Part shown: positions 1,701-39,303 of the stretch, piece by piece
Layout: every line of letters begins with the position of its first letter
How positions within the stretch are numbered: the first letter of the stretch is position 1
Assembly: GCF_965641715.1 (NCBI RefSeq)
Contig: NZ_OZ282455.1
DNA: 64,000 nucleotides
Origin: Escherichia coli
Lineage (GTDB): Bacteria; Pseudomonadota; Gammaproteobacteria; Enterobacterales; Enterobacteriaceae
Strand: one strand, 5' to 3'
Notes under the pieces: generated by a model
Seen by the model: only the letters and a program-made list of their open reading frames with translations
Databases searched by the model: none
What the model was told of the DNA's origin: nothing
Translations under genes and position numbers: made by a program

Positions 1701-2384
1701 ATGTCCCGTTTTATCCAGGGTAACTGCGTGCGTGTTATGGCCACGTTTCCGGGCAATGCTGTCGATTTCATCCTTACCGACCCGCCATATCTCGTCGGTT
1801 TTCGTGACCGACAGGGGCGTACCATCGCCGGCGATAAAACCGATGAATGGCTGCAACCGGCCTGTAATGAAATGTACCGCGTACTCAAAAAAGACGCGTT
1901 AATGGTGAGCTTCTATGGCTGGAACCGCGTCGATCGCTTTATGGCCGCCTGGAAAAATGCGGGATTCAGCGTGGTTGGCCACCTGGTCTTCACCAAAAAC
2001 TACACATCGAAGGCCGCATATGTGGGCTATCGCCACGAATGCGCCTACATCCTGGCAAAAGGCCGTCCACGTCTGCCACAAAACCCGCTGCCGGACGTGC
2101 TGGGCTGGAAATATTCAGGCAATCGCCATCACCCGACGGAAAAGCCCGTTACCAGCCTGCAACCGCTGATTGAGAGCTTCACACACCCGAACGCAATTGT
2201 GCTGGACCCGTTTGCAGGCAGCGGCTCAACCTGCGTCGCCGCCCTCCAGTCCGGACGCCGGTATATCGGTATCGAGCTGCTTGAGCAGTATCACCGTGTC
2301 GGGCAGCAACGCCTTGCCGCCGTGCAACGGGCCATGCAGCAGGGGGCCGCGAATGATGACTGGTTTATGCCGGAGGCTGCGTAA
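1701..2384 (+). CDS. orphan DNA amino-methyltransferase (N6-adenine/N4-cytosine class)
   Basis: DPPY catalytic motif near N-terminus and FAGSGST SAM-binding motif near C-terminus; no restriction endonuclease gene adjacent. Confidence 0.85.
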   Translation: MSRFIQGNCVRVMATFPGNAVDFILTDPPYLVGFRDRQGRTIAGDKTDEWLQPACNEMYRVLKKDALMVSFYGWNRVDRFMAAWKNAGFSVVGHLVFTKNYTSKAAYVGYRHECAYILAKGRPRLPQNPLPDVLGWKYSGNRHHPTEKPVTSLQPLIESFTHPNAIVLDPFAGSGSTCVAALQSGRRYIGIELLEQYHRVGQQRLAAVQRAMQQGAANDDWFMPEAA

Positions 2385-2606
2385 ATGAACTATGCCGGAC
2401 ACGAAAAACTTCGCGCCGAAGTGGCGGAGGTGGCCAATGCCATGTGTGACCTGCGTACAACCATGAATGAGATGGAGCGGCGGTACAGCTTTAATGCTGA
2501 CACCCTGCCGGAACGTCTGGTGCGTCAGACGTTGTTTCGCGCAAACCGCCTCCTGATGGAGGCATATACCGAAATTCTTGAACTGGATGCGTGCTTCAAA
2601 GATTAA
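2385..2606 (+). CDS. hypothetical protein (73 aa)
   Basis: Track ORF; start overlaps stop of methyltransferase gene (TAAATG), suggesting translational coupling. Confidence 0.45.
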   Translation: MNYAGHEKLRAEVAEVANAMCDLRTTMNEMERRYSFNADTLPERLVRQTLFRANRLLMEAYTEILELDACFKD

Positions 2607-2618
2607 GGAGGAGACGAA

Positions 2619-3053
2619 ATGTACGGAACATGCGAAACGCTCTGCCGTGAGCTGGCAGCAAAGTATCCGGGAAACACGCCGCTGATGCTGCTTATCTGGT
2701 CCCCGGAAGAGATTCAGGCACTGGCCGACGGTATGGAAATTTCTCTGACCGATCATGAAATCAGGACTGTCCTGGCGCACCTGGAGGACATCCCGGAAGA
2801 CCAGCGGACTGAGTCCGGTATTTCTTCCGCCGCGGCGATGGAGATTATCAGCAACGTGAGCGAAAACCGCCTGGTGACCGTCCCTGCTGAACTGCTGGCG
2901 TCCCTGATTCAGACCGCTGAACAGGCACTGTGGAAACGTGAATGGGCCGCCCGTGATAACGGCCTTGCCGTCCCGGAATGTGTTACCCGCCGTCAGGCAG
3001 TGATTAATCAGGCCCGCACCCTGCTGAAAAACAACACACACGAAAACAACTGA
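2619..3053 (+). CDS. hypothetical protein (144 aa), paralog of 4762..5184
   Basis: Track ORF with AGGAGG-like SD; shares SLTD.E..TV...L.D and VTVPA motifs with ORF 4762..5184. Confidence 0.6.
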
Positions 3054-3103
3054 TGTTATCGCCGCCTGCCCTGCGGGCGGCGATACAGGGAGAACGCTTA
3101 ATC

Positions 3104-3874
3104 ATGAACAAAACGCTGAATGCACTGGTTTGTCGTCACGCCCGTAACCTGCTGCTGGCGCAGGGCTGGCCGGAAGAGACGGATGTTGACCAGCGAAATC
3201 CGAACTATCCGGGCTGGATCAGCATTTACGTGCGGCTGGATGCGCCCCGGCTGGCGACGTTACTTATCAACCGTCACGGCGGCGTACTGCCGCCGCTCCT
3301 GGCCTCCGCCATTCAGAGACTGACCGGAACCGGGGCGGAACTGGTACTGTCCGGCAGTCAGTGGCAATCGCTGCCGGTACTTCCGGCAGACGGAACGCAG
3401 GTGTCTTTCCCGTATGCCGGAGAATGGCTGACCGAAGACGAAATCAGGGCTGTTCTTGATGCGGTGCACGATGCGGTACGAAGCATCTGTTACCAGGTGG
3501 CAGACGATGCGCGGCGTATCCGTGCGGCGCTGACCACCACCGGTCAGACGTTGCTGACCCGCCAGACGCGCCGCTTTCGCCTGGTCGTGAAGGAAAGCGA
3601 TCACCCCTGCTGGCTCGATGAAGATGACGAAAACCTGCCCGTGGTGCTCGATGCCATCGTGAACCGGGGAGCACGTTTTTCGTCGGTGGAAATGTACCTG
3701 GTCAGCGATTGTATTGAGCATATCCTGTCCAGTGGGCTGGCCTGCGATGTGCTGCGTATACCTGATGAATCGCCCCGCCGCTGGTTTGACCGTGGTGTTC
3801 TGCGGGAGGTGGTCCGGGAAGCCCGGACCGAAATCCGCAGCATGGCGGATGCCCTGGCAAAAATCCGGAAATGA
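3104..3874 (+). CDS. hypothetical protein (256 aa)
   Basis: Track ORF 3053..3874; ATG at 3104 follows a stem-loop (3056..3082) and a GGGAGA SD-like sequence. Confidence 0.55.
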
Positions 3875-3882
3875 TGACACTG

Positions 3883-3905
3883 GCGGGGAAAATCCCCGCC
3901 TTTTT
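3883..3905 (+). terminator. Rho-independent terminator
   Basis: GGCGGGG-aaaat-CCCCGCC hairpin followed by TTTTT directly after stop of 3104..3874. Confidence 0.5.
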
Positions 3906-3932
3906 CCTGCCGGTCCCCGGACAGAGCACAAA

Positions 3933-4270
3933 GGAAGTCGCCGCCGGCTCCGCTTTACCCGGCCATGCAGAGCATGGCCTTGTGGTTTTCAGTTATGTGG
4001 CCTCAGCGTCGTGTGCGGGCTGTGCCGTGCCTCCATCTTAGCCGGGCTGGCGTTGATGCAAGGGTACGCTTCGCCGCTGCGGTCACCCGGTCCCTCCTTC
4101 CCGTCTGCCGTGATTTTCCGGTCGTTCACCCGCTCAGATTTCGCGGTCTCACCCTCCAACTCCCGCCAGCCGTGTGCGTCAGGCTGCGGCTTCCCTTGCG
4201 CCCCTGCATCCCCGCCTTATCGCCCGGCTTTTCTGGAGGCACGGCACCGCCCGGTGTCGCGGAATATGTG
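3933..4270. repeat. dispersed leading-region repeat, family A copy 1 (candidate ssDNA promoter / ssi element)
   Basis: About 340 nt nearly identical to 10878..11218; GC-rich, non-coding, ends about 20 nt before klcA start. Confidence 0.7.
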
Positions 4271-4289
4271 AACAACGGAGGAAAACATC

Positions 4290-4715
4290 ATGCAATATGC
4301 GAAACCTGTCACTCTGAACGTTGAAGAGTGCGACCGTTTGTCTTTTCTGCCTTACCTGTTTGGCCAGGATTTTCTGTATGCCGAAGCGTCTGTATACGCG
4401 CTGGCGAAACAAATGATGCCGGAATATGAAGGCGGATTCTGGCACTTCATCCGCCTGCCGGACGGTGGCGGTTACATGATGCCGGACGGTGACCGTTTCC
4501 ACATGGTGAACGGTGCAAACTGGTTTGACCGTACCGTGAGTGCTGATGCCGCAGGCATCATCCTTACCTCCCTTGTGATTAACCGCCAGTTGTGGCTGTA
4601 CCACGACAGCGGGGATGCAGGACTGACCCAGCTTTACCGGATGCGCGATGCGCAGTTGTGGCGTCACATCGAATTTCACCCTGAATGCAACGCGATTTAC
4701 GCAGCACTGGACTGA
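4290..4715 (+). CDS. klcA: KlcA/ArdB-family antirestriction protein
   Basis: 141 aa; RLSFLP, GGFWHF and C-terminal AIYAALD motifs matching my memory of KlcA/ArdB. Confidence 0.8.
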
Positions 4716-4761
4716 TTAACGGACGGGGCGGCAATGCCGCCCCTGTAAAGGAGACGAGAAC

Positions 4762-5184
4762 ATGTACTGTACTGTTAAAGAAATTATCCGTGATGTACTG
4801 GATACAGACGTGCCGGACAGTGAATGCGTTTTTGCCGTGGTGCTGACCCGTGGGGATGTGCGTCACATAGCCCAGGACTGGAGTCTGACAGACGATGAGC
4901 TGGAAACCGTCATGCAGCGGCTGGACGATGCCTTTGAATATGGTGCGGATGTCAGCGTTGTTCACGGCGTTGTTCGTGAACTGATGGAAGAAAAGCGCGC
5001 CAGCCGTCAGGTGACAGTCCCGGCGGTGATGCTGGAAAAAGTGATGGCGCTGGCAGGCAGTGAAATGAAGCGCCTGTATGCCGTCGGGAGTGAGAACGGG
5101 GGCGACGGTGACGCATTCGTCAGGGAGGAACGCGAAGCAATGGACGTTGTGTTACAGGCGCTGGACGGGGAGACGATGTCATGA
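4762..5184 (+). CDS. hypothetical protein (140 aa), paralog of 2619..3053
   Basis: Track ORF with GGAGACGAG SD; shared motifs with 2619..3053. Confidence 0.6.
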   Translation: MYCTVKEIIRDVLDTDVPDSECVFAVVLTRGDVRHIAQDWSLTDDELETVMQRLDDAFEYGADVSVVHGVVRELMEEKRASRQVTVPAVMLEKVMALAGSEMKRLYAVGSENGGDGDAFVREEREAMDVVLQALDGETMS

Positions 5185-5372
5185 ATATCAGCACAGAAAC
5201 CCGCGAAATTCTGCGCAATTACAAAGCCGTGATTAATGCGCGGCGTCGTGAAATGGGGCAGAAACCGCTCACCACTGCGCAGATTGTTGATGAAATCTGC
5301 GATTTTGTGGCGAATCAGCAGGCGGTTTTCCTCGGTGGTCACTATATCCTTCAGGGCAGCAGAAACAGGTGA
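5181..5372 (+). CDS. hypothetical protein (63 aa)
   Basis: Track ORF; start overlaps upstream stop (ATGTCATGA). Confidence 0.4.
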   Translation: MNISTETREILRNYKAVINARRREMGQKPLTTAQIVDEICDFVANQQAVFLGGHYILQGSRNR

Positions 5373-5411
5373 TACAGGGCAGGCGGTAGAGGCCGCCTGT
5401 CAGCCCGCGCG

Positions 5412-6125
5412 AAAACCCCTGGCAGGCTGACGCCTGCCGGAAATGCGGGGTGCAGCGCCTGCGGCGCTGCCGGCCCGGCTTTCCGGTCAGAAGGTAGTGT
5501 ATGGCTGTATGCAGGGAACAGGTGTGATATTCCGTGACACTGTCACTGTTTCTGGCTGTCTTTTATTGCGCCCACTTCGGCTCCCGGCTGCCTGGCGGCA
5601 TCCGGTCGTCAGGCCCGACTCCGACAGGCAGCTGCTGGCGCACCCGCCAGTCTCCGCCGAACCCGCTGGCGCGGTTTCGGGCTGCCGCTACGGTCCGATG
5701 CGTGAAAACCCGGCTTGCAGCGACCGTTCCGGTCGCGCCGCCCCTGTCGCGCCGTGACCTGCGCTCCCTGCACACCTGACGGTGTGTGAGGAAACTGCGC
5801 CTGATGGCGCAGCAGTCTTCCCTCCTGCCGCCACCCCTGCGGCCTGTTTCCCGCTGTGGACTTTCCGGGGGGCAGACGTAACCCCCTCCCGTTCCATCTG
5901 TCCAGGGTGAGATGCACCGGCCACAAAATTTTTAGCCATGAACCCGGCTAAAAATTTTGCGTCCGCCCCCGGACAGCTGTCCCGTGAGGCGGTAAACGGG
6001 CCCCCATCGGAAAGGTCCACTGCGGGGAGAAACCCCTGTGAAGTGGACGGCAGGAGGAGCTTTCGCTCCTCTGAAGGGGCACATGAACGTCCCGTCGCCG
6101 GTATCCGGTTTATCTCACATCTTTC
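5412..6125. repeat. dispersed leading-region repeat, family B copy 1 (candidate ssDNA promoter / Frpo-ssi-like element)
   Basis: About 700 nt highly similar to 11782..12445; 3' part (about 5745..6125) also shared with 14961..15315; contains AT-rich palindrome CAAAATTTTTAGCC-N9-GGCTAAAAATTTTG; ends at ssb SD. Confidence 0.7.
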
Positions 6126-6140
6126 AGTCAGGAGGTTCTT

Positions 6141-6668
6141 ATGAGTGCACGTGGTATCAACAAGGTCATCCTCGTCGGGCGTCTGGGCAATGATCCGGAA
6201 GTCCGTTACATCCCCAACGGGGGCGCAGTGGCAAACCTGCAGGTGGCCACATCAGAAAGCTGGCGTGACAAACAGACGGGGGAGATGCGGGAGCAGACGG
6301 AATGGCACCGCGTGGTGCTGTTCGGCAAGCTCGCGGAAGTGGCAGGTGAATATCTGTGCAAGGGTGCGCAGGTCTACATCGAAGGTCAGCTTCGCACCCG
6401 TAGCTGGGAAGATAACGGTATCACCCGTTACGTCACTGAAATTCTTGTTAAGACCACGGGCACCATGCAGATGCTGGGGAGTGCACCACAGCAGAACGCT
6501 CAGGCGCAACCGAAGCCTCAGCAGAATGGGCAGCCACAGAGTGCTGACGCGACGAAAAAAGGTGGCGCGAAAACGAAAGGCCGTGGACGTAAGGCCGCGC
6601 AGCCCGAGCCTCAGCCGCAACCGCCGGAGGGGGAGGATTACGGGTTTTCAGACGATATCCCGTTCTGA
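6141..6668 (+). CDS. ssb: single-stranded DNA-binding protein (plasmid SSB)
   Basis: 175 aa; OB-fold N-terminus ([16 protein letters not shown]...), Gln/Pro-rich linker, acidic tail DDIPF. Confidence 0.95.
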
Positions 6669-6686
6669 CTGGCCTGACTGTGATAA

Positions 6687-6959
<273 letters not shown>

Positions 6960-7011
6960 GAGAGGTGCCGGACGCGCGAACGTCCGGCAGGACATAAGCA
7001 ATTATAAGGGG

Positions 7012-8976
7012 ATGATTATGCCTGTAACGAAGTGTGAACCAGAAACCACCCGCAAAGCAAGCCGTAAATCTGCAAAAACGCAGGAAACAGTCCTGTCTGC
7101 CCTGCTGGCGCAGACGGAGGAAGTGAGCGTGCCGCTGGCCTCACTGATTAAGTCACCGCTGAATGTGCGCACGGTGCCGTATTCTGCGGAGTCCGTCAGC
7201 GAACTGGCAGGGTCCATTCAGGGCGTCGGACTGCTGCAGAATCTGGTCGTGCATACCCTGCCTGGTGAGCGCTACGGTGTCGCCGCAGGTGGTCGCAGAC
7301 TGGCAGCACTCAATATGCTGGCTGAGCGTGGAATCATTCCGGCTGACTGGCCTGTCCGCGTGAAAATTATTCCGCAGGAACTGGCGACGGCTGCATCGAT
7401 GACCGAGAACGGTCATCGCCGGGATATGCACCCTGCCGAACAGATTGCCGGATTCCGCGCAATGGCGCAGGAAGGCAAAACAGCGGCACAAATCGGTGAT
7501 TTGCTGGGCTATTCACCCCGCCACGTTCAGCGAATGCTGAAACTGGCAGACCTTGCGCCTGTCATCCTTGATGCGCTGGCAGAAGACCGCATCACCACAG
7601 AGCACTGTCAGGCGCTGGCGCTGGAGAACGACACCGCGCGTCAGGTGCAGGTGTTTGAAGCTGCCTGTCAGTCGGGATGGGGCGGAAAACCGGAAGTACA
7701 GACCATTCGTCGTCTGGTGACCGAAAGTGAAGTGGCGGTGGCGGGGAACACTAAATTCCGCTTCGTGGGGGCTGATGCCTTCTCGCCAGATGAACTGCGC
7801 ACTGATTTGTTCAGCGACGATGAGGGTGGCTATGTGGACTGTGTTGCGCTCGATGCCGCCCTGCTGGAAAAACTCCAGGCTGTTGCAGAGTACCTTCGGG
7901 AAGCTGAGGGCTGGGGATGGTGTGCCGGACGCATGGAGGCCGTTGGTGAGTGCCGTGAAGATGCCCAGGCATACCGCAACCTGCCGCAGCCGGAAGCAGT
8001 GCTGACGGAGGCGGAAGAAGAACGCCTGAACGAACTGATGGCACGTTACGACGCACTGGAAAACCAGTGTGAGGAATCTGACCTGCTGGAAGCAGAAATG
8101 AAGCTGATGCGCTGCATGGCGAAGGTCAGAGCGTGGACGCCGGAGATGCGTGCCGGAAGCGGTGTGGTGGTGTCCTGGCGTTATGGCAACGTGTGTGTCC
8201 AGCGTGGTGTGCAGTTGCGCAGCGAGGATGACGTGGCTGACGACGCTGACCGCACGGAACAGATGCAGGAGAAAGCGTCAGTGGAGGAAATCAGTCTGCC
8301 ACTGCTGACGAAAATGTCTTCCGAACGCACGCTGGCAGTCCAGGCGGCACTCATGCAGCAACCGGACAAATCTCTGGCACTGCTGGCATGGACGCTCTGC
8401 CTGAATGTGTTTGGCAGCGGGGCGTACAGTAGTCCCGCCAGAATTTACCTGGAATGTGGGCATTACTCACTGACCAGCGCTGCGCCGTCAGGGAAGGAAG
8501 GTACCGCATTCATGGCGCTGATGGCAGAGCACTTTCGCCTTGCTGCCCTGCTGCCGGATGAATGGGAACGGGACATGACGACGTTCCTGTCACTCAGCCA
8601 GGAGGTGCTGTTATCCCTGCTCAGTTTCTGCACTGCATGCAGCATCCACGGCGTTCAGACCCGTGAGTGTGGTCACACGTCACGCAGTCCGCTGGACTCG
8701 CTGGAAACCGCCATCGGCTTTCACATGCGCGACTGGTGGCAGCCGACAAAAGCAAACTTCTTCGGACACCTGAAAAAGCCGCAGATTATCGCAGCCCTGA
8801 ATGAGGCAGGACTGTCCGGTGCCGCACGGGACGCGGAGAAGATGAAGAAAGGTGATGCGGCTGAACATGCAGAGCACCATATGAAAGACAACCGCTGGGT
8901 TCCAGGCTGGATGTGTGCACCACATCCACAGACAGATGCCACTGAACGCACCGATAACCTGGCTGATGCCGCCTGA
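7012..8976 (+). CDS. ParB-like nuclease-domain protein (large leading-region ParB/Srx homolog)
   Basis: Track ORF 6928..8976; ATG at 7012 after AAGGGG; N-terminal ParB box (VAAGGRRLAAL) followed by HTH-like segment. Confidence 0.8.
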   Translation: MIMPVTKCEPETTRKASRKSAKTQETVLSALLAQTEEVSVPLASLIKSPLNVRTVPYSAESVSELAGSIQGVGLLQNLVVHTLPGERYGVAAGGRRLAALNMLAERGIIPADWPVRVKIIPQELATAASMTENGHRRDMHPAEQIAGFRAMAQEGKTAAQIGDLLGYSPRHVQRMLKLADLAPVILDALAEDRITTEHCQALALENDTARQVQVFEAACQSGWGGKPEVQTIRRLVTESEVAVAGNTKFRFVGADAFSPDELRTDLFSDDEGGYVDCVALDAALLEKLQAVAEYLREAEGWGWCAGRMEAVGECREDAQAYRNLPQPEAVLTEAEEERLNELMARYDALENQCEESDLLEAEMKLMRCMAKVRAWTPEMRAGSGVVVSWRYGNVCVQRGVQLRSEDDVADDADRTEQMQEKASVEEISLPLLTKMSSERTLAVQAALMQQPDKSLALLAWTLCLNVFGSGAYSSPARIYLECGHYSLTSAAPSGKEGTAFMALMAEHFRLAALLPDEWERDMTTFLSLSQEVLLSLLSFCTACSIHGVQTRECGHTSRSPLDSLETAIGFHMRDWWQPTKANFFGHLKKPQIIAALNEAGLSGAARDAEKMKKGDAAEHAEHHMKDNRWVPGWMCAPHPQTDATERTDNLADAA

Positions 8977-9030
8977 TGAACAACCACACCGCCCCGCCGG
9001 AGACGGGGCGGCAGCAAGGGAGATACCGTG

Positions 9031-9465
9031 ATGAAAACTGAACTGACCCTGAATGCCCTGCAGTCCATGAACGCACAGGAATATGAAGATATCCGTGCTG
9101 CGGGAAGCGATATGCGCCGTAATCTCACTCACGAGGTGATGCGTGAAGTGGACGCACCGGCTAACTGGATGATGAATGGCGAGTATGGCAGTGAGTTCGG
9201 GGGCTTTTTCCCCGTCCAGGTTCGTTTCACGCCAGCCCACGAACGTTTCCACCTGGCATTATGTTCGCCGGGAGACGTCTCTCAGCTCTGGATGCTGGTT
9301 CTGGTGAATTGTGGTGGACAGCCTTTCGCCGTCGTTCAGGTGCAACATATCTTCACGCCTGTCGCTATCAGTCACACGCTGGCGCTTGCCGCGACACTTG
9401 ATGCGCAGGGGTACAGTGTTAACGACATCATCCATATCCTGATGGCAGAAGGAGGTCAGGCATGA
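9031..9465 (+). CDS. psiB: plasmid SOS inhibition protein PsiB
   Basis: About 144 aa; [27 protein letters not shown]... matches PsiB as I recall it. Confidence 0.95.
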
Positions 9466-10181
9466 GCGCACGTTCACGGGCACTGATCCCCCTCAGCGCA
9501 GAGCAACAGGCCGCCATGCAGGCTGTGGCTGTCACCGAACAACGTCGTCGTCAGGGACGCACACTTTCAGCATGGCCTTATGCCAGCGCTTTCTTTCGCT
9601 GCCTGAATGGCAGTCGCCGGATTTCGCTGACCGATCTCCGCTTTTTTGCTCCTGCGCTGACGAAGGAGGAATTTCATGGCAACCGTCTCCTGTGGCTGGC
9701 TGCCGTGGATAAACTGATTGAAAGTTTTGGTGAAGTCTGTGTTCTTCCCCTGCCATCCGATGCGGGGCATCGTCTGTTCCCGTCCGTTCCTTTTCGTGAA
9801 GGTGAGCGGCGTCGTCAGAAAACCACGCTGACAGAGCAGAAATACAGCCGCCAGCGGGAACGTGAGGCAGAACGACGGGAACTGGAATACCAGACATGTT
9901 TTGCTCAGGCGCAGATTGACCTTGCGTTTCATACTCCCGCCACGGTCGGAAGCTGGTTGTCCCGCTGGTCTGGTGTTGTTGAGGAGCATGATCTGGAAAC
10001 GATTTTCTGGGGGTGGTGCGGGCGTTTTCCATCACTGTCATCATTTGACCGGTTTTTCTGGCAGGAGGAACCACTCTGGCGGCTGATTTTTGAAGCCGGT
10101 GAGGCCGGTCGTGGTGCACCGGTACAGGTACGTGCACTTGAGCAGTGGATGATCCCGAACAAGCTGGAGAACGCAATATGA
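9462..10181 (+). CDS. psiA: plasmid SOS inhibition protein PsiA
   Basis: 239 aa, start overlaps psiB stop; matches PsiA as I recall it. Confidence 0.9.
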
Positions 10182-10774
10182 TGAAATCAGACGAACAATA
10201 TCACGTTCCCGTGTGGATGCGACCTCTGTTGCCGTTGCTCTGCAATACCGGTGGTAATGATCCGGAGGAACTGCTGAATGATACAGAAACCACCGCCAGT
10301 GCGAATATTGTCCGTTATGTACTGATAGTTGCAGTGCGGTCGCAGATTGATCTGCTGCAGCTACTGTACAGGAAAGGACTGTTGCGCACAGAGATACCAG
10401 GTGGCTTTTCACCGGAAGAAGCGCAGGAACTCCTGGATAATCTGGTGCGCAGCCATATCAGCAAGGCGCTGTCGGGTGAGCGAATGGCAGCCCGTGACAG
10501 AAATGCCGATCTGACCTGGATTCGCCAGCAACTGGTCGATGCCGCCTGGTTTGTCCGTGCCACACTGGAAGCGCATGGGATGGGCGTCGGAAATGAGAGT
10601 CCCTCTGCTCCGCCGGAGACAATGCCGGACATACAGACACGGGAACTGGTTATGTTGATCAAGCGACTGGCATCATCGCTGAAAGCGGTGAAACCCGACA
10701 GTAGCGTGGTGCGTGAAGCGCAGGACTGGCTGTGCGACAGAAAACTTGTGGATATCACAGATATTCTCCGGTGA
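10178..10774 (+). CDS. hypothetical protein (198 aa)
   Basis: Track ORF 10145..10774; ATG at 10178 overlaps psiA stop. Confidence 0.55.
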   Translation: MMKSDEQYHVPVWMRPLLPLLCNTGGNDPEELLNDTETTASANIVRYVLIVAVRSQIDLLQLLYRKGLLRTEIPGGFSPEEAQELLDNLVRSHISKALSGERMAARDRNADLTWIRQQLVDAAWFVRATLEAHGMGVGNESPSAPPETMPDIQTRELVMLIKRLASSLKAVKPDSSVVREAQDWLCDRKLVDITDILR

Positions 10775-10877
10775 ACCAGACATGTATATTTTACGCAGGG
10801 ACACGCCGATCATGATCGTTTCATATCAGGGGTGGTCTGGAGGTCATGCGGCGTGTCCTCTGCACTCGCCGGAATAA

Positions 10878-11218
10878 GGAAGTCGCCGGCGGCTCCGCTT
10901 TTACCCGGCCATGCGGGGCATGGCCTTGTGGGTTTTCAGCTCTGTGGCCTCAGCGTCGTGTGCGGGCTGTGCCGTGCCTCCATCTTAGCCGGGCTGGCAG
11001 GGATGCAAGGGTACGCTTCGCCGCTGCGGTCACCCGGTCCCTCCTTCCCGTCTGCCGTGATTTTCCGGTCGTTCACCCGCTCAGATTTCGCGGTCTCACC
11101 CTCCAACTCCCGCCAGCCGTGTGCGTCAGGCTGCGGCTTCCCTTGCGCCCTGTGCATCCCCGCCTTATCGCCCGGCTTTTATGGAGGCACGGCACCGCCC
11201 GGTGCCGCAGAACATGTG
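10878..11218. repeat. dispersed leading-region repeat, family A copy 2 (candidate ssDNA promoter / ssi element)
   Basis: Near-identical to 3933..4270; ends about 18 nt before ardA start. Confidence 0.7.
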
Positions 11219-11236
11219 ACTATGGAGGATTCGGGA

Positions 11237-11737
11237 ATGTCTGTTGTTGCACCTGCTGTATACGTTGGAACCTGGCACAAATACAACTGTGGAAGTATCG
11301 CCGGACGCTGGTTTGACCTGACCACGTTTGATGATGAGCGCGACTTTTTCGCCGCCTGCCGTGCTCTTCACCAGGATGAAGCCGATCCTGAACTGATGTT
11401 TCAGGATTATGAGGGATTCCCGGGGAATATGGCCTCTGAATGCCATATCAACTGGGCCTGGGTTGAAGGCTTCCGCCGGGCACGGGATGAAGGCTGCGAA
11501 GAGGCTTATCGTCTCTGGGTGGATGATACCGGTGAGACGGATTTTGACACCTTCCGCGATGCCTGGTGGGGCGAGGCTGACAGTGAGTAGGCTTTTGCGG
11601 TTGAGTTCGTCAGTGATACCGGCCTGCTGGCTGACGTGCCGGAGACGGTGGCGCTCTATTTTGACTATGAGGCGTATGCGCGGGATTTATTCCTGGACTC
11701 CTTCACCTTTATTGACGGTCATGTGTTCCGTCGGTGA
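11237..11737 (+). pseudogene. ardA: ArdA antirestriction gene interrupted by in-frame TAG at codon 118
   Basis: [20 protein letters not shown]... matches ArdA; reading frame stops at TAG 11588..11590 (…GEADSE*) and resumes in frame with the ArdA C-terminus (AFAVEFVSDTGLLADVPETVALYFDYEAYARD…RR*) to TGA 11735..11737. Confidence 0.85.
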
Positions 11738-11781
11738 TTTACTCCCCCGCTCCGGCGGGGGTATGGCCTGCCAGGCCGCCG

Positions 11782-12445
11782 GAAAACCCTGGCAGGCTTA
11801 CGCCTGCCTGAAATGCAGGAGGGCCGCGCCTGCGGCGCTGCCCTTCCTGCCCGTCATGGTGTGAGGCATTTTTCTGTTATGTCGTTTCTGTTGTTCTGAT
11901 TTCCGGAGGCGGGGACACCTTCGGCTCCCGGCTGCCTGGCGGCATCCGGTCGTCAGGCCCGACTCCGACAGGCAGCTGCTGGCGCACCCGCCAGTCTCCG
12001 CCGAACCCGCTGGCGCGGTTTCGGGCTGCCGCTACGGTCCGATGTCTGAAAAACCAGGCTTGCAGCGACCGTTCCGGTCGCGCCGCCCCTGTCGCGCCGG
12101 AAACGGCGCTCCCTGCACACCTGACGGTGTGTAAGGCCACTGCGCCTGATGGCGCAGTCAACCCTTCCGCCGCCACCCCTGCGGCCTGTTTCCCGCTGTG
12201 GACTTTCCGGGGGCTGGAGTAACCACATCCCGTTTCAGCAGTCTAGGGGAAGATATACCGTCCACAAAATTTTTAGCCATAAACCCGGCAAAAAATTTTG
12301 CGTCCGCCCCCGGACAGCTGCCCCGTGACGTGGTGACGGACGCCCCATCGGAAAGGTCCACTGCGGGGAGAAACCCCGAAGAAGTGGACGGCAGAAGGGG
12401 CTTTCGCCCCTCCGGGGAGCAACCGGTCGGCCCGGCGACCTGATT
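11782..12445. repeat. dispersed leading-region repeat, family B copy 2
   Basis: Similar to 5412..6125 over about 660 nt; ends at SD of ORF 12466. Confidence 0.7.
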
Positions 12446-12465
12446 CAGCAGAAGGAGACGTTTTC

Positions 12466-12900
12466 ATGACAGTCAGCAGCACGATTTCCGTTTTTTGCCG
12501 CGACGGGGTGTTCCGTACCGTTTACTGCCACCTGCACGGGGAGCCGACCTGGAACGGTCGCATCCTGCATACCCACTATGCCACCGGTCAGCAGGCCGAA
12601 GCCCTGGTTGAACACGGTGATATCCGTTGCCTCGGTCCCCGTTGCGACAAACCCGCCGGGCATACGCTTCAGAACCCGGTGGACGGTGTGACGGCTTATT
12701 ACGGACGTGACAGTGGTTTCCGGATGGACAGTGAGGCGCGTGAGTACCGTTCTTTCAGGGAGGCTATTGCCACTGAAAGCACTGAAGAGGTGCGCTTCCA
12801 TTATGTGTTCATCGACGGCTACTGGAAGGTGATGTACCGCACGCCGGAAGGCTGGAAGATGAAAGCGCTCGCGCTGGCACTGCGTCGCTGTCCGAAATGA
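12466..12900 (+). CDS. hypothetical protein (144 aa)
   Basis: Track ORF with GAAGGAGA SD; immediately downstream of family B repeat; hairpin after stop. Confidence 0.6.
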   Translation: MTVSSTISVFCRDGVFRTVYCHLHGEPTWNGRILHTHYATGQQAEALVEHGDIRCLGPRCDKPAGHTLQNPVDGVTAYYGRDSGFRMDSEAREYRSFREAIATESTEEVRFHYVFIDGYWKVMYRTPEGWKMKALALALRRCPK

Positions 12901-12993
12901 AAAAAAGGCAGGGCGATAAACCCTGCCTCTCTCCGCCGGCGCTTCCCCGCCAGGAAGTCCGGCATCTCAATCACTATCTATGGAGATTATGCC

Positions 12994-13260
12994 ATGAGAC
13001 CATCAATTATCTTCGCAACCGCCGAGTATGTAAAGCGTCTGCGTGAAGAGTGCCTGCGGGAGAATAAACCCCTGCACCGCCATACCCGCTTCAGACGTCA
13101 GGAGCTGGCACAGGATGAGATTAACCCGGACGTCCTGGCGATGAGCGGCCATATCGCCAGACGCTGCAGTGAGCAGAAGCGGGTGCGTATCCCCGCTATG
13201 AAAGTCAGCGAATGGGGCCACCTGCTCCGCGCGCTTGAAATTGAGCGGGTCTGCCACTGA
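12994..13260 (+). CDS. hypothetical protein (88 aa)
   Basis: Track ORF with GGAG SD. Confidence 0.5.
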   Translation: MRPSIIFATAEYVKRLREECLRENKPLHRHTRFRRQELAQDEINPDVLAMSGHIARRCSEQKRVRIPAMKVSEWGHLLRALEIERVCH

Positions 13261-13324
13261 TTAACCCTTGCCGTCTGCCTGTGCAGGCGGCAGGATACGT
13301 TCAGACATCTCACCAGGAGGAACC

Positions 13325-14251
13325 GTGAGTAAGAAGAAAACCACCACGACGCCCACGCCGCATGATGCCGCGTTCCGGTCGTTCCTGGCGAATCCCGACG
13401 TCGCCAGAGATTTTCTGGAACTGCATCTTCCGGCGGAGTACCGGCAGTTGTGCGACCTGTCCACGCTGAAGCTGGAACCCGCCACCTTTGTTGAGCCGGA
13501 CCTGCATCAGTACGCCAGCGATATCCTCTGGAGTGTGAAAACCACCGGGGGTGAAGATGGCTATGTTTATACGCTCATCGAGCACCAGAGCACCGAAAAT
13601 CTGTACATGCCTTTCCGCATGTTACGTTACAGTGTGGCGGCGATGCAGAGACATCTGGAGCAGCACAAAACGTTGCCACTGGTCATTCCGGTGCTGTTCT
13701 ATCACGGTGAGCGCAGCCCGTACCCGTACAGCATGAACTGGCTGGACTGTTTTGAGAATCCGGCGCTTGCGGCTAAAATATACACAAAGCCGTTTCCGCT
13801 GGTTGATATCACTGTCGTTGATGACAATGAAATCATGAACCATCGCCGGATGGCCGCACTGACGCTGCTGATGAAGCATATCCGCCATCGTGACATGATG
13901 GAGCTGCTGGACAAACTCCCGCAGGTCATGGTGGAAATTTCAGACGAGCAGGTGCGTGTTCTGATTCATTACATCGTTAACGCAGGGGACTCTGTATCAC
14001 CGGAATTTATGCGGGCGCTGGCTGAGCGTCTGCCGCAGCATGAGGATAAACTGATGACTATCGCAGAACGTCTTGAGCAAAAAGGTCGCCAGGAAGGCAG
14101 GATGGAAGGACGCATGGAAGGACGCATGGAAGGAGCGCTTGAAAAAGCCCTGGCTATTGCGTGCCAGCTTCAGAAAATGGGGATGACGCCGGAGCAGATT
14201 AAGCAGGCTACCGGACTTTCCGATGACGAACTGAAGAAAATCACTCACTGA
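13325..14251 (+). CDS. Rpn-family recombination-promoting nuclease (YhgA-like, PD-(D/E)xK)
   Basis: Track ORF 13268..14251; GTG at 13325 after CAGGAGG; YhgA-like N-terminal region; C-terminal tandem GRMEGRMEGRMEG repeat (about 14096..14134). Confidence 0.75.
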   Translation: MSKKKTTTTPTPHDAAFRSFLANPDVARDFLELHLPAEYRQLCDLSTLKLEPATFVEPDLHQYASDILWSVKTTGGEDGYVYTLIEHQSTENLYMPFRMLRYSVAAMQRHLEQHKTLPLVIPVLFYHGERSPYPYSMNWLDCFENPALAAKIYTKPFPLVDITVVDDNEIMNHRRMAALTLLMKHIRHRDMMELLDKLPQVMVEISDEQVRVLIHYIVNAGDSVSPEFMRALAERLPQHEDKLMTIAERLEQKGRQEGRMEGRMEGRMEGALEKALAIACQLQKMGMTPEQIKQATGLSDDELKKITH

Positions 14252-14262
14252 GTAAACATCAC

Positions 14263-14288
14263 AGCCCGGCAAAATGCCGGGCTTTTTT
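14263..14288 (+). terminator. Rho-independent terminator
   Basis: AGCCCGGC-aaaat-GCCGGGC followed by TTTTTT after Rpn stop. Confidence 0.6.
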
Positions 14289-14312
14289 GTCAGCAGGAGC
14301 AGAGCAAACAGC

Positions 14313-14471
14313 ATGACGATTGCAGAACGTCTTATTCAAAAAGGCGCACTTGAAGTGGCGCGGGAAATAGCCTGCCGGCTGCGGGATATGGGCTGGACGC
14401 CGGAACGGATTCAGGAGGCAACCGGACTTTCCGGTGAAGAACTGAAAAAGCTGTTTCCTGATGAGCAGTAG
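14313..14471 (+). CDS. small protein homologous to the Rpn C-terminal tail (RpnS/YpaA-like)
   Basis: 52 aa (MTIAERLIQKGALEVAREIACRL…) aligns with the last about 60 aa of the upstream Rpn protein but lacks the GRMEG repeats. Confidence 0.5.
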   Translation: MTIAERLIQKGALEVAREIACRLRDMGWTPERIQEATGLSGEELKKLFPDEQ

Positions 14472-14501
14472 CCTGGCATTCAGCCAGGCTGTGAATCACG
14501 C

Positions 14502-14753
14502 TCACACATCCTCTGCCGTTTCCCCCAGTTCATTTTCCAGTCGCCTGATGATATCTGCCTTACGCATCCCCTGCATGTGAGGCAGCAGGTCACGGACTGA
14601 AAGTGCCTGGGTGGTCCTCCAGACGGTGACGTCCACCTGTTCCGCATTTTCCCAGGCGTGCCATGTTCTCTGCGTCACGCCAAATTCTCTGGCCGCTTTT
14701 TCGCGTGACCAGAGCATGCTTTTTCGCCAGATTCGCAGTTCCCAGCCGGTCAT
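14502..14753 (-). CDS. small HTH DNA-binding protein (XRE/Cro-like candidate regulator)
   Basis: 83 aa; HTH-like segment SREKAAREFGVTQRTWHAWEN; AAGGTG SD; divergent from leading genes. Confidence 0.6.
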   Translation of the reverse strand: MTGWELRIWRKSMLWSREKAAREFGVTQRTWHAWENAEQVDVTVWRTTQALSVRDLLPHMQGMRKADIIRRLENELGETAEDV

Positions 14754-14767
14754 AAAACACCTTTAAA

Positions 14768-14788
14768 AAAGTGAAAAAACTTCACTTT
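14768..14788. promoter_or_regulatory. operator-like palindrome AAAGTGAA-N5-TTCACTTT (site 1)
   Basis: Perfect 8-bp inverted repeat about 15 nt upstream of the HTH gene start. Confidence 0.5.
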
Positions 14789-14834
14789 ATTTTATCATCA
14801 TAATCACCAAATTAACGCGATAAATAAGTGTGAA

Positions 14835-14855
14835 AAAGTGAAGAAATTTCACTTT
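14835..14855. promoter_or_regulatory. operator-like palindrome AAAGTGAA-N5-TTCACTTT (site 2)
   Basis: Second identical palindrome 67 bp from site 1 in an AT-rich divergent promoter region. Confidence 0.5.
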
Positions 14856-14960
14856 TTTTGCTTGTAAATGTCGTGCGGTTTTCTCTGTTTTCACCTGTGC
14901 GGGAGTGGTGTGCCAGTGACCACCACATGCCATTGTTGTGCCGTCGTTTTTCTTCAGTCG

Positions 14961-15315
14961 CGCCGTATGCGGCGCTCCCTGCACACCTTACGGTGTGTAA
15001 GGCCACTGCGCCTGATGGCGCAGCTGTCTCTGCCTGTCTGCCGCCGCACTGCGGCCTGTTCTCCGCAGACGGACTTTCCGGGGGTACATACATGACCACA
15101 TCCCGTTTCAGTCGTCCAGGGGAGAGATGTACCAGCCACAAAACTTTTTGCCGCAGGCGTCAAAAACTTTTGCGTCTGCCCCCGGACAACTGCCCCGTGA
15201 CGTGGTGAGCGTCCCCCGTCGGAAAGGTCCACTGCGGGGAAATCCCCGAAGACCCGGACGGCAGAAGGAGCTTCGCTCCTCCGGGAAATGACCTGGCTGA
15301 CCCGGCAGTCGTGAC
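14961..15315. repeat. dispersed leading-region repeat, family B copy 3 (3' unit only)
   Basis: Matches only the 3' about 355 nt of copies 1 and 2; ends at SD of ORF 15330. Confidence 0.65.
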
Positions 15316-15329
15316 GATGAGGAGACAAT

Positions 15330-16181
15330 GTGATGAATCAGACTTTACCCACTGCTGACCTGAATACTGCCGGCACGACAGATGTTATTCCGTCTGTGGC
15401 TATCGACCGCATCATCGCGCAGCGTAACGAAGGTATTGCACTGTTCATGCAGGCGATGGAATGCCTGGCGACAGCGCGCAAGATTCTGCTCGATGCGTCA
15501 GGTGATATTTTTCTTTACGGGTTTGAAGACTGCGTGACTGATTCCGTTCGTCGCATAGATAAACCGGAAGAAGCGAAAAGGAATATCACCCGTCTTGCCG
15601 ACCGGAAAATCTGGGATCGCCTGATGACAGATACGGGCATGTACACCTTCATGAGTTCATGCCAGCGTGATGAGTGGAACAGCCAGCTGATGAGCGACAC
15701 CTGTCCTGAAATCACCCTGGACAATGTACTGGCAACATTCCGCCATCTGAATGCCTGCAAGATGCAGACATTTGAACAGGGACTGATTGATGTCTACCGG
15801 AAATTGTCATGGGATTACAGAACCAATAATCCCTGCCGTCTGGGTAAGAAAATCATTATTGAAAACCTGCTGTACCGCTGGAGTAACGGGCGTGTGACGC
15901 TGGACTGCAGCGGACGGGAGGCACTGGATGACCTGGTACGTCCGTTTTATCTGCTGGAGGGGCGCAACGTTCCTGACTTCAGGAACAGTATCGGGGCGCA
16001 GTATGGTGAATTTCTCGGGAACGGCGACAATGTCGGTAAGCTGTTAGAAGGGGAATATTTTACGGTGCGTGGCTACCAGAAAGGGACCGTACACATTGTC
16101 TTTAAGCGTTCTGACCTTGTTGAAAAACTGAATGATATTATTGCACGGCATTATCCAGGTGCATTGCCGCCACGAGTCTGA
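15330..16181 (+). CDS. hypothetical protein (283 aa), oriT-proximal leading gene
   Basis: Track ORF with GAGGAGA SD; hairpin plus T-run after stop. Confidence 0.6.
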   Translation: MMNQTLPTADLNTAGTTDVIPSVAIDRIIAQRNEGIALFMQAMECLATARKILLDASGDIFLYGFEDCVTDSVRRIDKPEEAKRNITRLADRKIWDRLMTDTGMYTFMSSCQRDEWNSQLMSDTCPEITLDNVLATFRHLNACKMQTFEQGLIDVYRKLSWDYRTNNPCRLGKKIIIENLLYRWSNGRVTLDCSGREALDDLVRPFYLLEGRNVPDFRNSIGAQYGEFLGNGDNVGKLLEGEYFTVRGYQKGTVHIVFKRSDLVEKLNDIIARHYPGALPPRV

Positions 16182-16266
16182 TTAAACAGAAAAGCCCTGG
16201 TATTTATGCCGGGGCTTTTTTTTCTGTAATCATCATAATCTCAGAACACGATGTGACATTGTCACA

Positions 16267-16602
16267 TCAATTGTTGTTCATATCGATGCCATCTTTCCTG
16301 CCTGAATCTGTCTTTTTAGGTGCTGTTTTAGAGGAAGAACGGCGGGATGGTTTTTTCGATTCTGCTTCCCGAATAATGTCACGAAGTGCCTTCTCTCCTA
16401 CTTCATACCCTGCATTTTTGAGCGTGTCACGAACATCTGCCAGTGTATAACCCTTTGTCCTTACCAGGACAATAATGTCATCACGAATGGCATCAAGAAA
16501 ATCACGCAATGTTTTCCGTTGAGCGGTGAGATCTGGCAATTCCGATAAAGCAGCTTTTGCCAGCTGGATGTCATCATCTGAGTAAAATTTTTTAGAAGCC
16601 AT
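16267..16602 (-). CDS. hypothetical small protein with basic C-terminal tail (111 aa)
   Basis: Track ORF 16267..16608 (GTG); ATG at 16602 with GGAGAG SD; tail SKKPSRRSSSKTAPKKTDSGRKDG suggests nucleic-acid binding. Confidence 0.5.
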   Translation of the reverse strand: MASKKFYSDDDIQLAKAALSELPDLTAQRKTLRDFLDAIRDDIIVLVRTKGYTLADVRDTLKNAGYEVGEKALRDIIREAESKKPSRRSSSKTAPKKTDSGRKDGIDMNNN

Positions 16603-16660
16603 TGGCACTTTCTCTCCGTTTCATGTTGAAGTCTGATTTTATCATCAAAAACTGACTCCT

Positions 16661-16791
16661 GGCAGGGCTGCGCCCTGCCTCTGCCGTCTGCATAAGACTA
16701 TGATGCACAAAAATAACAGGCTATAATGGCCTGAAAAACGGGACAGGATGTGCAATTGTAATACCGTCACACGCGACGCTATTACAATTGC
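16661..16791 (-). other. oriT: oriT (origin of transfer) with predicted nic site on the - strand
   Basis: 12-bp inverted repeat GCAATTGTAATA / TATTACAATTGC (16752..16763, 16780..16791); on the - strand the repeat is followed by ACATCCTG then TCCC, matching the IncP-type nick consensus ATCCTG|Y, which places the nick between + coordinates 16744/16743, 8 nt from the repeat; second palindrome GGCAGGGCTGCGCCCTGCC at 16661..16679; directly upstream of nikA. Confidence 0.7.
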
Positions 16792-16835
16792 CATCTGGTC
16801 AGGGCTTCGCCCCGACACCCCGTAAGGAGCCTGAA

Positions 16836-17168
16836 GTGAGTGATAGTGCGGTAAGAAAGAAAAGTGAGGTACGGCAAAAGACAGTTGTCAGGACACTCAG
16901 ATTCTCTCCTGTTGAGGATGAAACCATCAGGAAAAAAGCTGAAGATTCCGGACTTACTGTATCTGCTTACATCCGAAATGCAGCACTGAATAAGCGAATT
17001 AACTCCCGTACAGATGATGCTTTTCTGAAGGAGTTAATGAGACTGGGAAGGATGCAGAAGCATCTGTTTGTTCAGGGAAAAAGAACCGGTGACAAGGAAT
17101 ACGCAGAAGTGCTTGTTGCCATAACCGAACTTACAAATACATTGCGTAAACAGTTAATGGAAGGTTGA
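16836..17168 (+). CDS. nikA: relaxosome accessory protein NikA
   Basis: Track ORF 16788..17168; GTG at 16836 after AAGGAG gives 110 aa; adjacent to oriT and nikB. Confidence 0.85.
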   Translation: MSDSAVRKKSEVRQKTVVRTLRFSPVEDETIRKKAEDSGLTVSAYIRNAALNKRINSRTDDAFLKELMRLGRMQKHLFVQGKRTGDKEYAEVLVAITELTNTLRKQLMEG

Positions 17169-17178
17169 GGATTCTCCG

Positions 17179-19878
17179 GTGAATGCAGTCATTCCAAAAA
17201 AGAGAAGGGACGGCAAGTCTTCGTTCGAAGACCTGGTATCCTACGTCTCTGTCCGGGATGACATGACCGATGAGGAACTGGATTTATCTTCTTCTTCGCA
17301 GGCTGAACAACCGCACCGAAGCCGTTTCAGTCGCCTTGTTGATTATGCGACACGTCTTCGAAATGAGTCATTCGTGGCGCTGGTTGATGTCATGAAGGAC
17401 GGCTGCGAATGGGTCAACTTTTATGGTGTCACCTGCTTTCATAACTGTACTTCTCTTGAAACTGCCGCTGCAGATATGGAGTACATTGCCCGGCAGGCAC
17501 ACTATGCAAAAGATGACACTGATCCTGTTTTTCACTACATTCTTTCCTGGCAGTCACATGAAAGCCCGCGTCCGGAACAGATTTATGACAGTGTACGTCA
17601 TACGCTGAAATCACTCGGCCTTGCCGACCATCAGTATGTCTCTGCCGTGCATACTGATACAGATAATCTGCACGTCCATGTGGCTGTTAACCGGGTACAC
17701 CCTGAAACGGGTTATCTGAACCGGTTATCCTGGAGTCAGGAAAAACTCAGTCGTGCCTGCCGTGAGCTTGAACTGAAGCATGGTTTTGCTCCGGATAACG
17801 GTTGCTGGGTCCATGCACCGGGAAATCGTATCGTTCGCAAAACCGCCGTTGAACGTGATCGCCAGAACGCGTGGACACGCGGGAAAAAACAAACTTTTCG
17901 CGAGTATGTCGCGCAGACAGCGGTCGCTGGTTTACGCAGTGAACCTGTAAATGACTGGTTATCCCTGCATCGTCGTCTTGCGGAAGATGGTCTGTACCTG
18001 TCTCAGATGGACGGAAAATTTCTGGTGATGGATGGCTGGGATCGCAACAGGGAAGGTGTACAGCTTGACTCGTTTGGTCCCTCCTGGTGTGCAGAAAAAC
18101 TCATGAAAAAAATGGGTGACTACACGCCAGTACCAAAAGACATTTTCAGCCAGGTGGAAGCACCAGGACGCTATAATCCGCACTTCATTGCCGCTGATGT
18201 TCGCCCGGAAAAAATCGCTGAAACAGAAAGTCTGCAGCAGTATGCCTGTCGTCATCTTGGAGAACGTCTGCCGGAAATGGCACGGGAAGGACGGCTGGAA
18301 AACTGCCAAGCTATTCACCGCACACTGGCTGAAGCGGGATTATGGATGCGTGTTCAGCATGGTCACCTGGTTATCTGTGACGGTTATGATCATAACCAGA
18401 CTCCCGTTCGTGCTGACAGCGTATGGTCGCTGCTGACGCTCGACAATGTGAATCAACTCGATGGTGGCTGGCAGCCTGTACCAACAGATATTTTCCGCCA
18501 GGTTACGCCAACAGAACGCTTCCGTGGTCGTCGTATGGAGAGCTGTCCTGCGACCGATAAAGAATGGCACCGTATGCGTACAGGCACGGGGCCGCAGGGG
18601 GCTATCAAACGCGAACTGTTTTCTGACAAAGAAAGTCTGTGGGGATACAGCATCAGCCATTGTAGCCCTCAGATTGAAGAAATGATCACACAGGGTGAGT
18701 TTACCTGGCAGCGTTGTCATGAGCTGTTTGCACAACAGGGACTGATGCTACAGAAACAACATCACGGGCTTGTTGTCGTTGATGCCTTTAATCATGAGCA
18801 AACGCCGGTGAAGGCCAGCAGCATTCATCCTGATCTGACACTGGGGCGTGCAGAGCCACAGGCCGGACCTTTTGTGAGTGCCCCAGCAGATTTGTTTGAC
18901 AGGGTGCAACCTGAAAGTCGCTATAACCCGGAGCTGGCTGTCAGTGACAGGTACGGGGTCAGCAGTAAACGTGACCCAATGCTGCGCCGGCAGCGACGTA
19001 AAGCCAGAGCTGAGGCCCGTGCTGACCTGCGTGCCCGCTATCTGGCATGGCGTGAACAATGGCGTAAACCAGATCTGCGTTATGGGGAACGTTGTCGGGA
19101 AATTCATCAGGCATGCCGTCTGCGGAAGTCACACATTCGTGCGCAGTACGATGATCCGGCATTACGTAAGCTGCATTATCACATTGCAGAAGTTCAGCGA
19201 ATGCAGGCATTGATCAGGCTGAAAGAAGACATCAGGGATGAGCGACAGAAACTTATTGCTGACGGGAAGTGGTATCCACCCTCTTACCGTCAGTGGGTCG
19301 AAACTCAGGCTGCTCAGGGAGACAGGGCTGCTGTATCGCAGCTGAGAGGCTGGGATTATCGCGATCGCCGTAAAGACAGGTCACGCACAACGACGACAGA
19401 CCGCTGTGTCGTGCTTTGTGAACCGGGCGGAACGCCGGTATACGGTAATACCGGTGATCTCGAGGCCCGTCTGCAGAAGAACGGGAGTGTTCGTTTCCGT
19501 GACCGTCGGACGGGAGAGTTTGTCTGTACGGATTATGGTGACAGGGTTGTTTTCCGTAATCACCATGACCGCAATGCGCTGGCAGATAAACTGGATTTGA
19601 TTGCACCGGTATTATTCGGGCGTGATCCTCGCATGGGTTTTGAACCAGAAGGAAACGACAAACAATTTAACCAGGTCTTTGCTGAAATGGTTGCCTGGCA
19701 TAATGTGACAGGCCGTACCGGTCACGAAGACTACAGGATTACGCGACCGGACGTGGATCATCACCGTGAAGGAAGTGAACGCTACTACCGCGATTATATC
19801 GCGGCGAACAGCAACGATGACGCATCACTGCCTCCGCCGGAGCAGGATAAACGCTGGGAACCGCCTTCTCCAGGTTAA
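17179..19878 (+). CDS. nikB: relaxase NikB (MOBP family)
   Basis: 899 aa; histidine triad HTDTDNLHVHVAVN typical of relaxases. Confidence 0.95.
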   Translation: MNAVIPKKRRDGKSSFEDLVSYVSVRDDMTDEELDLSSSSQAEQPHRSRFSRLVDYATRLRNESFVALVDVMKDGCEWVNFYGVTCFHNCTSLETAAADMEYIARQAHYAKDDTDPVFHYILSWQSHESPRPEQIYDSVRHTLKSLGLADHQYVSAVHTDTDNLHVHVAVNRVHPETGYLNRLSWSQEKLSRACRELELKHGFAPDNGCWVHAPGNRIVRKTAVERDRQNAWTRGKKQTFREYVAQTAVAGLRSEPVNDWLSLHRRLAEDGLYLSQMDGKFLVMDGWDRNREGVQLDSFGPSWCAEKLMKKMGDYTPVPKDIFSQVEAPGRYNPHFIAADVRPEKIAETESLQQYACRHLGERLPEMAREGRLENCQAIHRTLAEAGLWMRVQHGHLVICDGYDHNQTPVRADSVWSLLTLDNVNQLDGGWQPVPTDIFRQVTPTERFRGRRMESCPATDKEWHRMRTGTGPQGAIKRELFSDKESLWGYSISHCSPQIEEMITQGEFTWQRCHELFAQQGLMLQKQHHGLVVVDAFNHEQTPVKASSIHPDLTLGRAEPQAGPFVSAPADLFDRVQPESRYNPELAVSDRYGVSSKRDPMLRRQRRKARAEARADLRARYLAWREQWRKPDLRYGERCREIHQACRLRKSHIRAQYDDPALRKLHYHIAEVQRMQALIRLKEDIRDERQKLIADGKWYPPSYRQWVETQAAQGDRAAVSQLRGWDYRDRRKDRSRTTTTDRCVVLCEPGGTPVYGNTGDLEARLQKNGSVRFRDRRTGEFVCTDYGDRVVFRNHHDRNALADKLDLIAPVLFGRDPRMGFEPEGNDKQFNQVFAEMVAWHNVTGRTGHEDYRITRPDVDHHREGSERYYRDYIAANSNDDASLPPPEQDKRWEPPSPG

Positions 19879-19884
19879 AAAAAA

Positions 19885-19909
19885 GGCCGCGCCAGAATCC
19901 GGCGCGGCC
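19885..19909 (-). terminator. Rho-independent terminator (for trbC; sits between convergent nikB and trbC)
   Basis: GGCCGCGCC-agaatcc-GGCGCGGCC hairpin with A-run on + strand (U-run on - strand). Confidence 0.5.
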
Positions 19910-19914
19910 ACTGT

Positions 19915-23269: not shown

Positions 23270-23287
23270 TTTCAGTTCTCCGGATAA

Positions 23288-24940: not shown

Positions 24941-25011
24941 CGGGCAACACGGCGGCAGGTTTTCTGCCGCCGCTTTGTTGCGAAGGCTGACCTCATTGCG
25001 CCCTTTCTTCT

Positions 25012-39301: not shown

Positions 39302-39303
39302 GA

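Follow-up and report, generated by a model that had tools for sequence, protein, structure and literature searches.

A probable loss-of-function amber allele of ardA in an otherwise intact IncI1/I-gamma plasmid of Escherichia coli

The 64,000-nucleotide stretch of Escherichia coli DNA analysed here (hereafter, the window) is part of an IncI1/I-gamma conjugative plasmid that is otherwise intact apart from its ardA gene, in which codon 118 is an amber stop. The change, E118*, is an ordinary nonsense mutation in an ardA of the ColIb-P9/R64 type, and from sequence comparison it is a private allele of one lineage, represented by the window and one other deposited assembly. The allele is probably genuine, very recent and devoid of function, an ordinary pseudogene and not a new mechanism.

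The ardA frame and its plasmid setting

The ardA frame opens at ATG 11237, with a Shine-Dalgarno sequence (GGAGGA) read immediately 5' of the start codon, and in translation it extends to a TGA at 11735–11737, interrupted at codon 118 by a TAG at 11588–11590. The 117 codons preceding the stop encode MSVV...DAWWGEADSE. Past the TAG the same frame reads AFAVEF...ETVALYFDYEAYARDLFLDSFTFIDGHVFRR, a continuation that corresponds to AFAVEFVSDTGLLADVPETVALYFDYEAYARDLFLDSFTFIDGHVFRR up to the TGA. All three codons lie where a sequence-only reading of this DNA had placed them, and its proposal of a single GAG to TAG change is confirmed by comparison with the ardA of the nearest public relative, E. coli plasmid pRKI3099a (NZ_MN124285.1; protein WP_000117627.1, 166 amino acids), from which the window copy differs over 501 nt solely by the G to T substitution at 11588. 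The 48 codons 3' of the stop (119–166, 11591–11737) are identical to the wild type, and the intact state of this remnant points to a recent origin of E118*. By computation, about 3.8% of the single-base changes that wild-type ardA could undergo would give a stop, so that one nonsense change among the few SNPs of the lineage is unremarkable and needs no special explanation.

The identity of the gene is secure. A megablast search with the 501 nt returned roughly 1,900 plasmid records and 1,330 complete E. coli replicons at 95–99.8% identity; the records listed carry the annotation 'antirestriction protein ArdA', and the plasmids are nearly all of conjugative IncI type. A chance pattern of open reading frames is ruled out, the window copy being a well-known gene, 99.8% identical at the nucleotide level to annotated ardA genes, with one nonsense substitution added. 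An alignment with ColIb-P9, which the sequence-only reading had recommended, shows the same gene, encoding a DNA-mimic inhibitor of type I restriction-modification (R-M) systems of family PF07275. Five nucleotide differences account for Q81R, E96D, A125V and E118*, so that 163 of the 166 residues agree when the stop is set aside. The likeness to ColIb-P9 and R64 extends to the location of ardA between psiA and an Rpn-like gene, the orientation on the transferred strand, the upstream hairpin repeat and the ribosome binding site. The window differs in having TAG and not GAG at codon 118, which leaves its product without residues 118–166 (domain 3).

The leading region carries, in order, genes for a DUF1281 protein, a methylase, an ArdB/KlcA-like protein, ssb, a parB-like gene, psiB, psiA, a hypothetical gene, ardA and, after further genes, nikA and nikB. 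This is the classical arrangement of a leading region and is shared by ColIb-P9; from the parB-like gene through psiB, psiA, the hypothetical gene and ardA to nikA-nikB, the order is identical in both ColIb-P9 and pRKI3099a. No second copy of ardA was found within the window. The features discussed here are collected in Table 1.

Table 1. Coordinates of the ardA allele and of associated features in the window
Feature	Position	Strand	Basis or remarks
Translated part of ardA (predicted), 117 codons + TAG	11237..11590	+	domains 1-2 + first ~8 residues of domain 3
Causal substitution G to T (GAG Glu118 to TAG)	11588..11588	+	relative to pRKI3099a ardA; also in GCA_965259455.1
Untranslated ardA remnant (predicted), codons 119-166 + TGA	11591..11737	+	rest of domain 3: antirestriction motif (LLADVPETVALYFDYEAYARD), VF motif (HVF)
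Intact ArdB/KlcA-family antirestriction gene	4290..4715	+	PF03230, residues 45-141 = model 2-92 of 92, E=2.9e-26
Intact orphan DNA methyltransferase gene, leading region	1701..2384	+	NCBIfam NF010253 (PRK13699), 497 bits against a cut-off of 244
ardA upstream region, candidate single-strand (Frpo/ssi-type) promoter hairpin	10876..11236	-	repeat, fold

Positions 1–24,760 of the window are collinear with pRKI3099a, with 45 substitutions and no indels. Forty-two of these fall within 7.7 kb (17075–24755, covering nikA, nikB, trbC, trbB and trbA) and are mostly synonymous, as against three in the preceding 17 kb; such clustering suggests that the relaxase/trb region contains a recombination patch. 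The structures diverge just past the collinear 24.7 kb: window positions 24760–27500 match pRKI3099a (34760–42650) in short patches only, and the window lacks finQ and an IS66-family insertion, both of which are present in pRKI3099a between trbA and excA/traY.

Predicted consequences of the truncation

The truncation can be mapped on the structure of ArdA from Tn916 ORF18 (PDB code: 2W82; complexes 7BTO and 7BTR), which is only distantly related in sequence to the window protein but has a three-domain layout that places the stop near the start of domain 3. The two proteins align as homologues over residues 8–160 (E=4e-7), with E118 opposite D112. In the Tn916 protein, domain 1 comprises residues 3–61, domain 2 residues 62–103 and domain 3 residues 104–165 (PMC2731889), so that the amber codon deletes nearly all of domain 3. 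That domain forms the dimer interface and holds the antirestriction motif (126–140) and the VF motif (I160 F161); through D109, D111, D112 and D115, the charge pattern that resembles DNA runs on across the interface (PMC2731889). In the structural model, domain 3 is placed over the part of the type I methyltransferase core that recognises the target.

The profile evidence agrees with this mapping. Pfam profiles were used for ArdA and for the ArdB/KlcA-like protein, NCBIfam having no model that matches either. PF07275 covers model positions 1–151 of 155 in the protein with E118 restored (E=8e-30); in the 117-residue product the match, over residues 8–115, stops at model position 105 (1–105 of 155, E=1.9e-14). 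Together with the 2W82 alignment, which puts the antirestriction motif past the stop, this upholds the earlier claim that the C-terminal third of the protein and its antirestriction motif are removed. A complete three-domain monomer is not encoded before the stop, as the motifs sit in the remnant at 11591–11737.

Translation from ATG 11237 would end after residue 117, giving a product that keeps domains 1 and 2. Having lost the dimer interface with domain 3, this fragment would be unable to form the DNA mimic of 42 bp that the dimer provides, and most or all of the anti-restriction and anti-modification activity would be gone. [quoted passage not shown] The inactivation of ardA suggested by the sequence-only reading is thus supported as the main reading, in the sense of a predicted loss of function resulting from a GAG to TAG change that cuts off domain 3.

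With that activity lost, the lineage would enter recipients proficient in type I R-M without ArdA protection. The mutation could nevertheless persist, because ArdA would be needed only when the plasmid enters a restricting host and because the leading region still has its orphan methylase and an intact gene of the ArdB/KlcA type. Both of these genes, which had been put forward as possible compensation for the loss of ardA, are indeed present and intact: the PF03230 protein is identical to WP_001198939.1 of pRKI3099a, and the PRK13699-type methyltransferase is identical to its counterpart in the same plasmid. They may make the loss of ArdA more tolerable and could serve as a functional back-up. 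The allele is a further example of how a plasmid can lose an anti-defence gene of its leading region and yet keep its transfer machinery visibly intact in all other respects, which is consistent with ArdA, ArdB/KlcA and orphan methylases being redundant. In annotation, the window ardA is best labelled as truncated or as a pseudogene, and plasmids of this lineage should not be presumed to be shielded from type I restriction by ArdA.

Occasional damage to ardA is not unique to this plasmid. Other short ArdA proteins not marked 'partial' exist in public E. coli/Salmonella assemblies, for example WP_149858520.1 (146 amino acids) and WP_348924103.1 (156 amino acids), both with altered N-termini. 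These sporadic alleles have different lesions, and none has E118*.

That the loss of function is complete is our inference, since three observations point the other way. Mutants of Tn916 ArdA altered in domain 3, and monomers, kept up to 80% of antirestriction while losing antimodification, and antirestriction was placed in domains 1–2 (Roberts et al. 2013, PMC3906837). Natural proteins consisting of the N-terminal part only, termed sArdN, are active against EcoKI with near-full antirestriction (PMC12548430). Finally, the fragment remains strongly acidic: ArdA(1–117) has a computed mass of 13.6 kDa, a net charge of -17 and a pI of 4.2 (restored protein: 19.2 kDa, -24 and 4.1), and keeps 26 of the 36 acidic residues, where full-length proteins typically have a net charge of about -22 to -29. 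On these grounds, ArdA(1–117) could be stable and still useful, either as a monomer that blocks restriction through HsdR but not modification, or by acting on H-NS or other DNA-binding proteins; the N-domain of ArdA has been reported to inhibit repression by H-NS (Melkina & Zavilgelsky 2021, as cited in PMC13300388). Such a separation of functions seems unlikely to us. It conflicts with the C-terminal motif requirement given for ColIb-P9 ArdA, and the removal of domain 3 bares residues of domain 2 that are normally packed against it. The Tn916 mutants studied by Roberts et al. were point mutants with a folded domain 3, whereas the window allele deletes the domain. Moreover, the allele is limited to one lineage and gives no sign of spread or selection.

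A more far-reaching proposal would make E118* a natural variant that blunts restriction, for example through contacts of the monomer with HsdR, while leaving modification uninhibited, in effect an enterobacterial counterpart of sArdN at its moment of origin. Methylation of a plasmid arriving in a new host would then be quicker, and an active 1–117 fragment would help to settle whether antirestriction resides in domains 1–2 (Roberts 2013) or needs domains 2–3 (Nekrasov 2007 / McMahon 2009). We regard this as quite improbable. The sArdN and sArdC proteins (Utkina et al. 2025, PMC12548430) are, like the window product, shortened ArdA-like proteins with part of the fold, sArdN corresponding to the N-terminal region. 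However, sArdN genes are about one third of full length, form conserved and stable subfamilies (mainly in Actinomycetota) and have no 3' remnant. The window ardA is private, recent and followed by an undecayed 3' remnant, and has been seen in only one other assembly, for which reasons we do not assign it to the sArdN type. Loss of function remains our preferred reading of the truncation.

Distribution and authenticity of the allele

The distribution of the allele was examined with a 61-mer centred on the T at 11588, for which one mismatch pushes the identity below 99%. The T allele was found in none of the 1,896 PLSDB plasmid records and none of the 1,325 complete E. coli records that contain the region, all of which have at least one mismatch to the probe. 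An exact 31-mer containing the TAG likewise had no match in JGI metagenome contigs or GTDB representative genomes. The exact NikB variant of the window is widespread (202 index blocks), and in five of the five listed NikB-identical loci that reach the ardA region a 166-residue ArdA is encoded. Together with the absence of the allele from the record scans, this indicates that E118* is private to one lineage. The literature search returned no report of premature stops in ardA of IncI1 plasmids, of the E118* allele or of the accession of the second assembly described below.

A collection of 15 billion proteins places the exact 117-residue protein on six contigs. These are not six independent occurrences: reading of the DNA showed that five of the six are wild-type ardA genes cut by the end of the contig (at '...GACAGTGAGG' or 'GAGGA'). 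They were retrieved because the query asked for exactly 117 amino acids, and are thus an ascertainment artefact. Contigs from four E. coli draft assemblies (GCA_042824495.1, GCA_047886315.1, GCA_038704755.1 and GCA_023761545.1) break off wild-type ardA at one and the same base, nt 352 ('...GACAGTGAGG'), which suggests that all four met the same fork in the assembly graph or that an insertion lies there; the coincidence of this break with the mutated codon follows from the length of the protein used in the look-up.

The sixth contig, CBDGWI010000044.1 of assembly GCA_965259455.1, is a true second instance. Its 501-nt ardA matches the window copy at every position, the TAG included, and wherever the two are collinear (about 5754–12099, ~6.4 kb) the contig is 100% identical to the window. 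The 6,472-bp contig is circularly permuted, with window positions 11024–12099 joined to 5754–11150 and an overlap of about 127 nt between its ends. It closes on itself through the leading-region repeat common to 11919–12412 and 5575–6071, and is probably an assembly cycle through repeats, as is often seen in short-read assemblies, and not a real minicircle or duplication. The cluster table also puts the 117-residue protein on a contig of 102,589 bp, which may be the source plasmid of the window; the contigs retrieved are of 6,472 bp or less.

The sequence-only reading had named a sequencing or assembly error as the finding that would overturn it. A random error of assembly or consensus at 11588 is unlikely, given that a second public assembly has the same T and that the window is otherwise clean. 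Over positions 1–17000 the window differs from pRKI3099a at three sites only (374, 1663 and 11588), with no indels; at position 374 it has the ancestral, ColIb-P9 state. The 27 other annotated coding sequences in the first 24.7 kb, a segment free of indels relative to pRKI3099a, are all intact by the same comparison, and the 34 tra/pil genes compared in 27.5–64 kb are all full length, without stops or frameshifts, which leaves ardA as the sole disrupted gene among the 62 checked in the window. Site 11588 also lies outside any homopolymer. We give very little credence to the view that position 11588 is really G, with ardA intact. It draws on the privacy of the allele, since an error at a single base is always conceivable from a consensus, and on the chance that the window and the second assembly share an isolate or a read set; the second assembly was, for its part, separately deposited, with contigs in the style of short-read data.

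Suppression, re-initiation and expression context

Suppressors of amber codons are seldom found in natural isolates, and UAG is read through only at a low basal rate. The sequence-only reading had offered dependence on amber suppression as an alternative to inactivation, in which full-length ArdA would still be made, by suppression or natural readthrough, and the gene would work at a reduced dose. The downstream frame is intact, as this would require, and a supE host would give an E118Q product. Work summarised in PMC3906837 has antirestriction prevailing over antimodification at low ArdA concentration, so that even a small readthrough fraction could matter. Nevertheless, we found no support for the proposal and consider it highly improbable: the stop is conserved in no relative examined, all of which have G at 11588, and ARAGORN detected no tRNA gene in the 64-kb window. 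Neither a conserved stop nor a suppressor tRNA on the element, as would mark a programmed or suppressor-dependent gene, is thus present. In addition, E118 aligns with D112 of Tn916 ArdA, a conserved acidic residue that spans the dimer interface (PMC2731889). Suppression of the supE type in a given host, or low basal readthrough, may occur, but would then be fortuitous, not designed. A C-terminal fragment made by re-initiation can be dismissed, as the first in-frame start, GTG 11636, would give 33 residues, lacks a Shine-Dalgarno-like sequence and misses the start of the domain.

The leading-region genes are all on the plus strand, which makes the minus strand their template and, with oriT beside nikA, presumably also the first strand to enter the recipient. 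No sigma-70-like site was found by scanning the plus strand at 10700–12500. Upstream of these genes lie repeats of two families, with units of 330–500 bp. In the first, 10876–11229, upstream of ardA, is 94.6% identical to 3931–4282, upstream of the klcA-like gene. The second comprises 5575–6071, 11919–12412 and 14957–15285, which precede ssb, the gene at 12466 and the DUF4942 gene at 15333, respectively (90% and 82% identity).

As single-stranded DNA, the minus strand of the region upstream of ardA is predicted to fold as a long imperfect hairpin (-91.5 kcal/mol, z=-3.9), as is that of 11919–12465 (z=-8.7). These folds match the single-strand promoters of Frpo/ssi type described for leading regions (PMC11541004), and a promoter role would suit them. 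By prediction, ardA has the context expected of a leading-region ArdA gene, with transcription from the transferred strand and a promoter-like hairpin at its 5' side. The G to T substitution at 11588 lies outside the upstream hairpin elements. A polar effect on downstream genes appears unlikely, because over 700 nt separate ardA from the next gene, at 12466, which is preceded by a hairpin repeat of its own.
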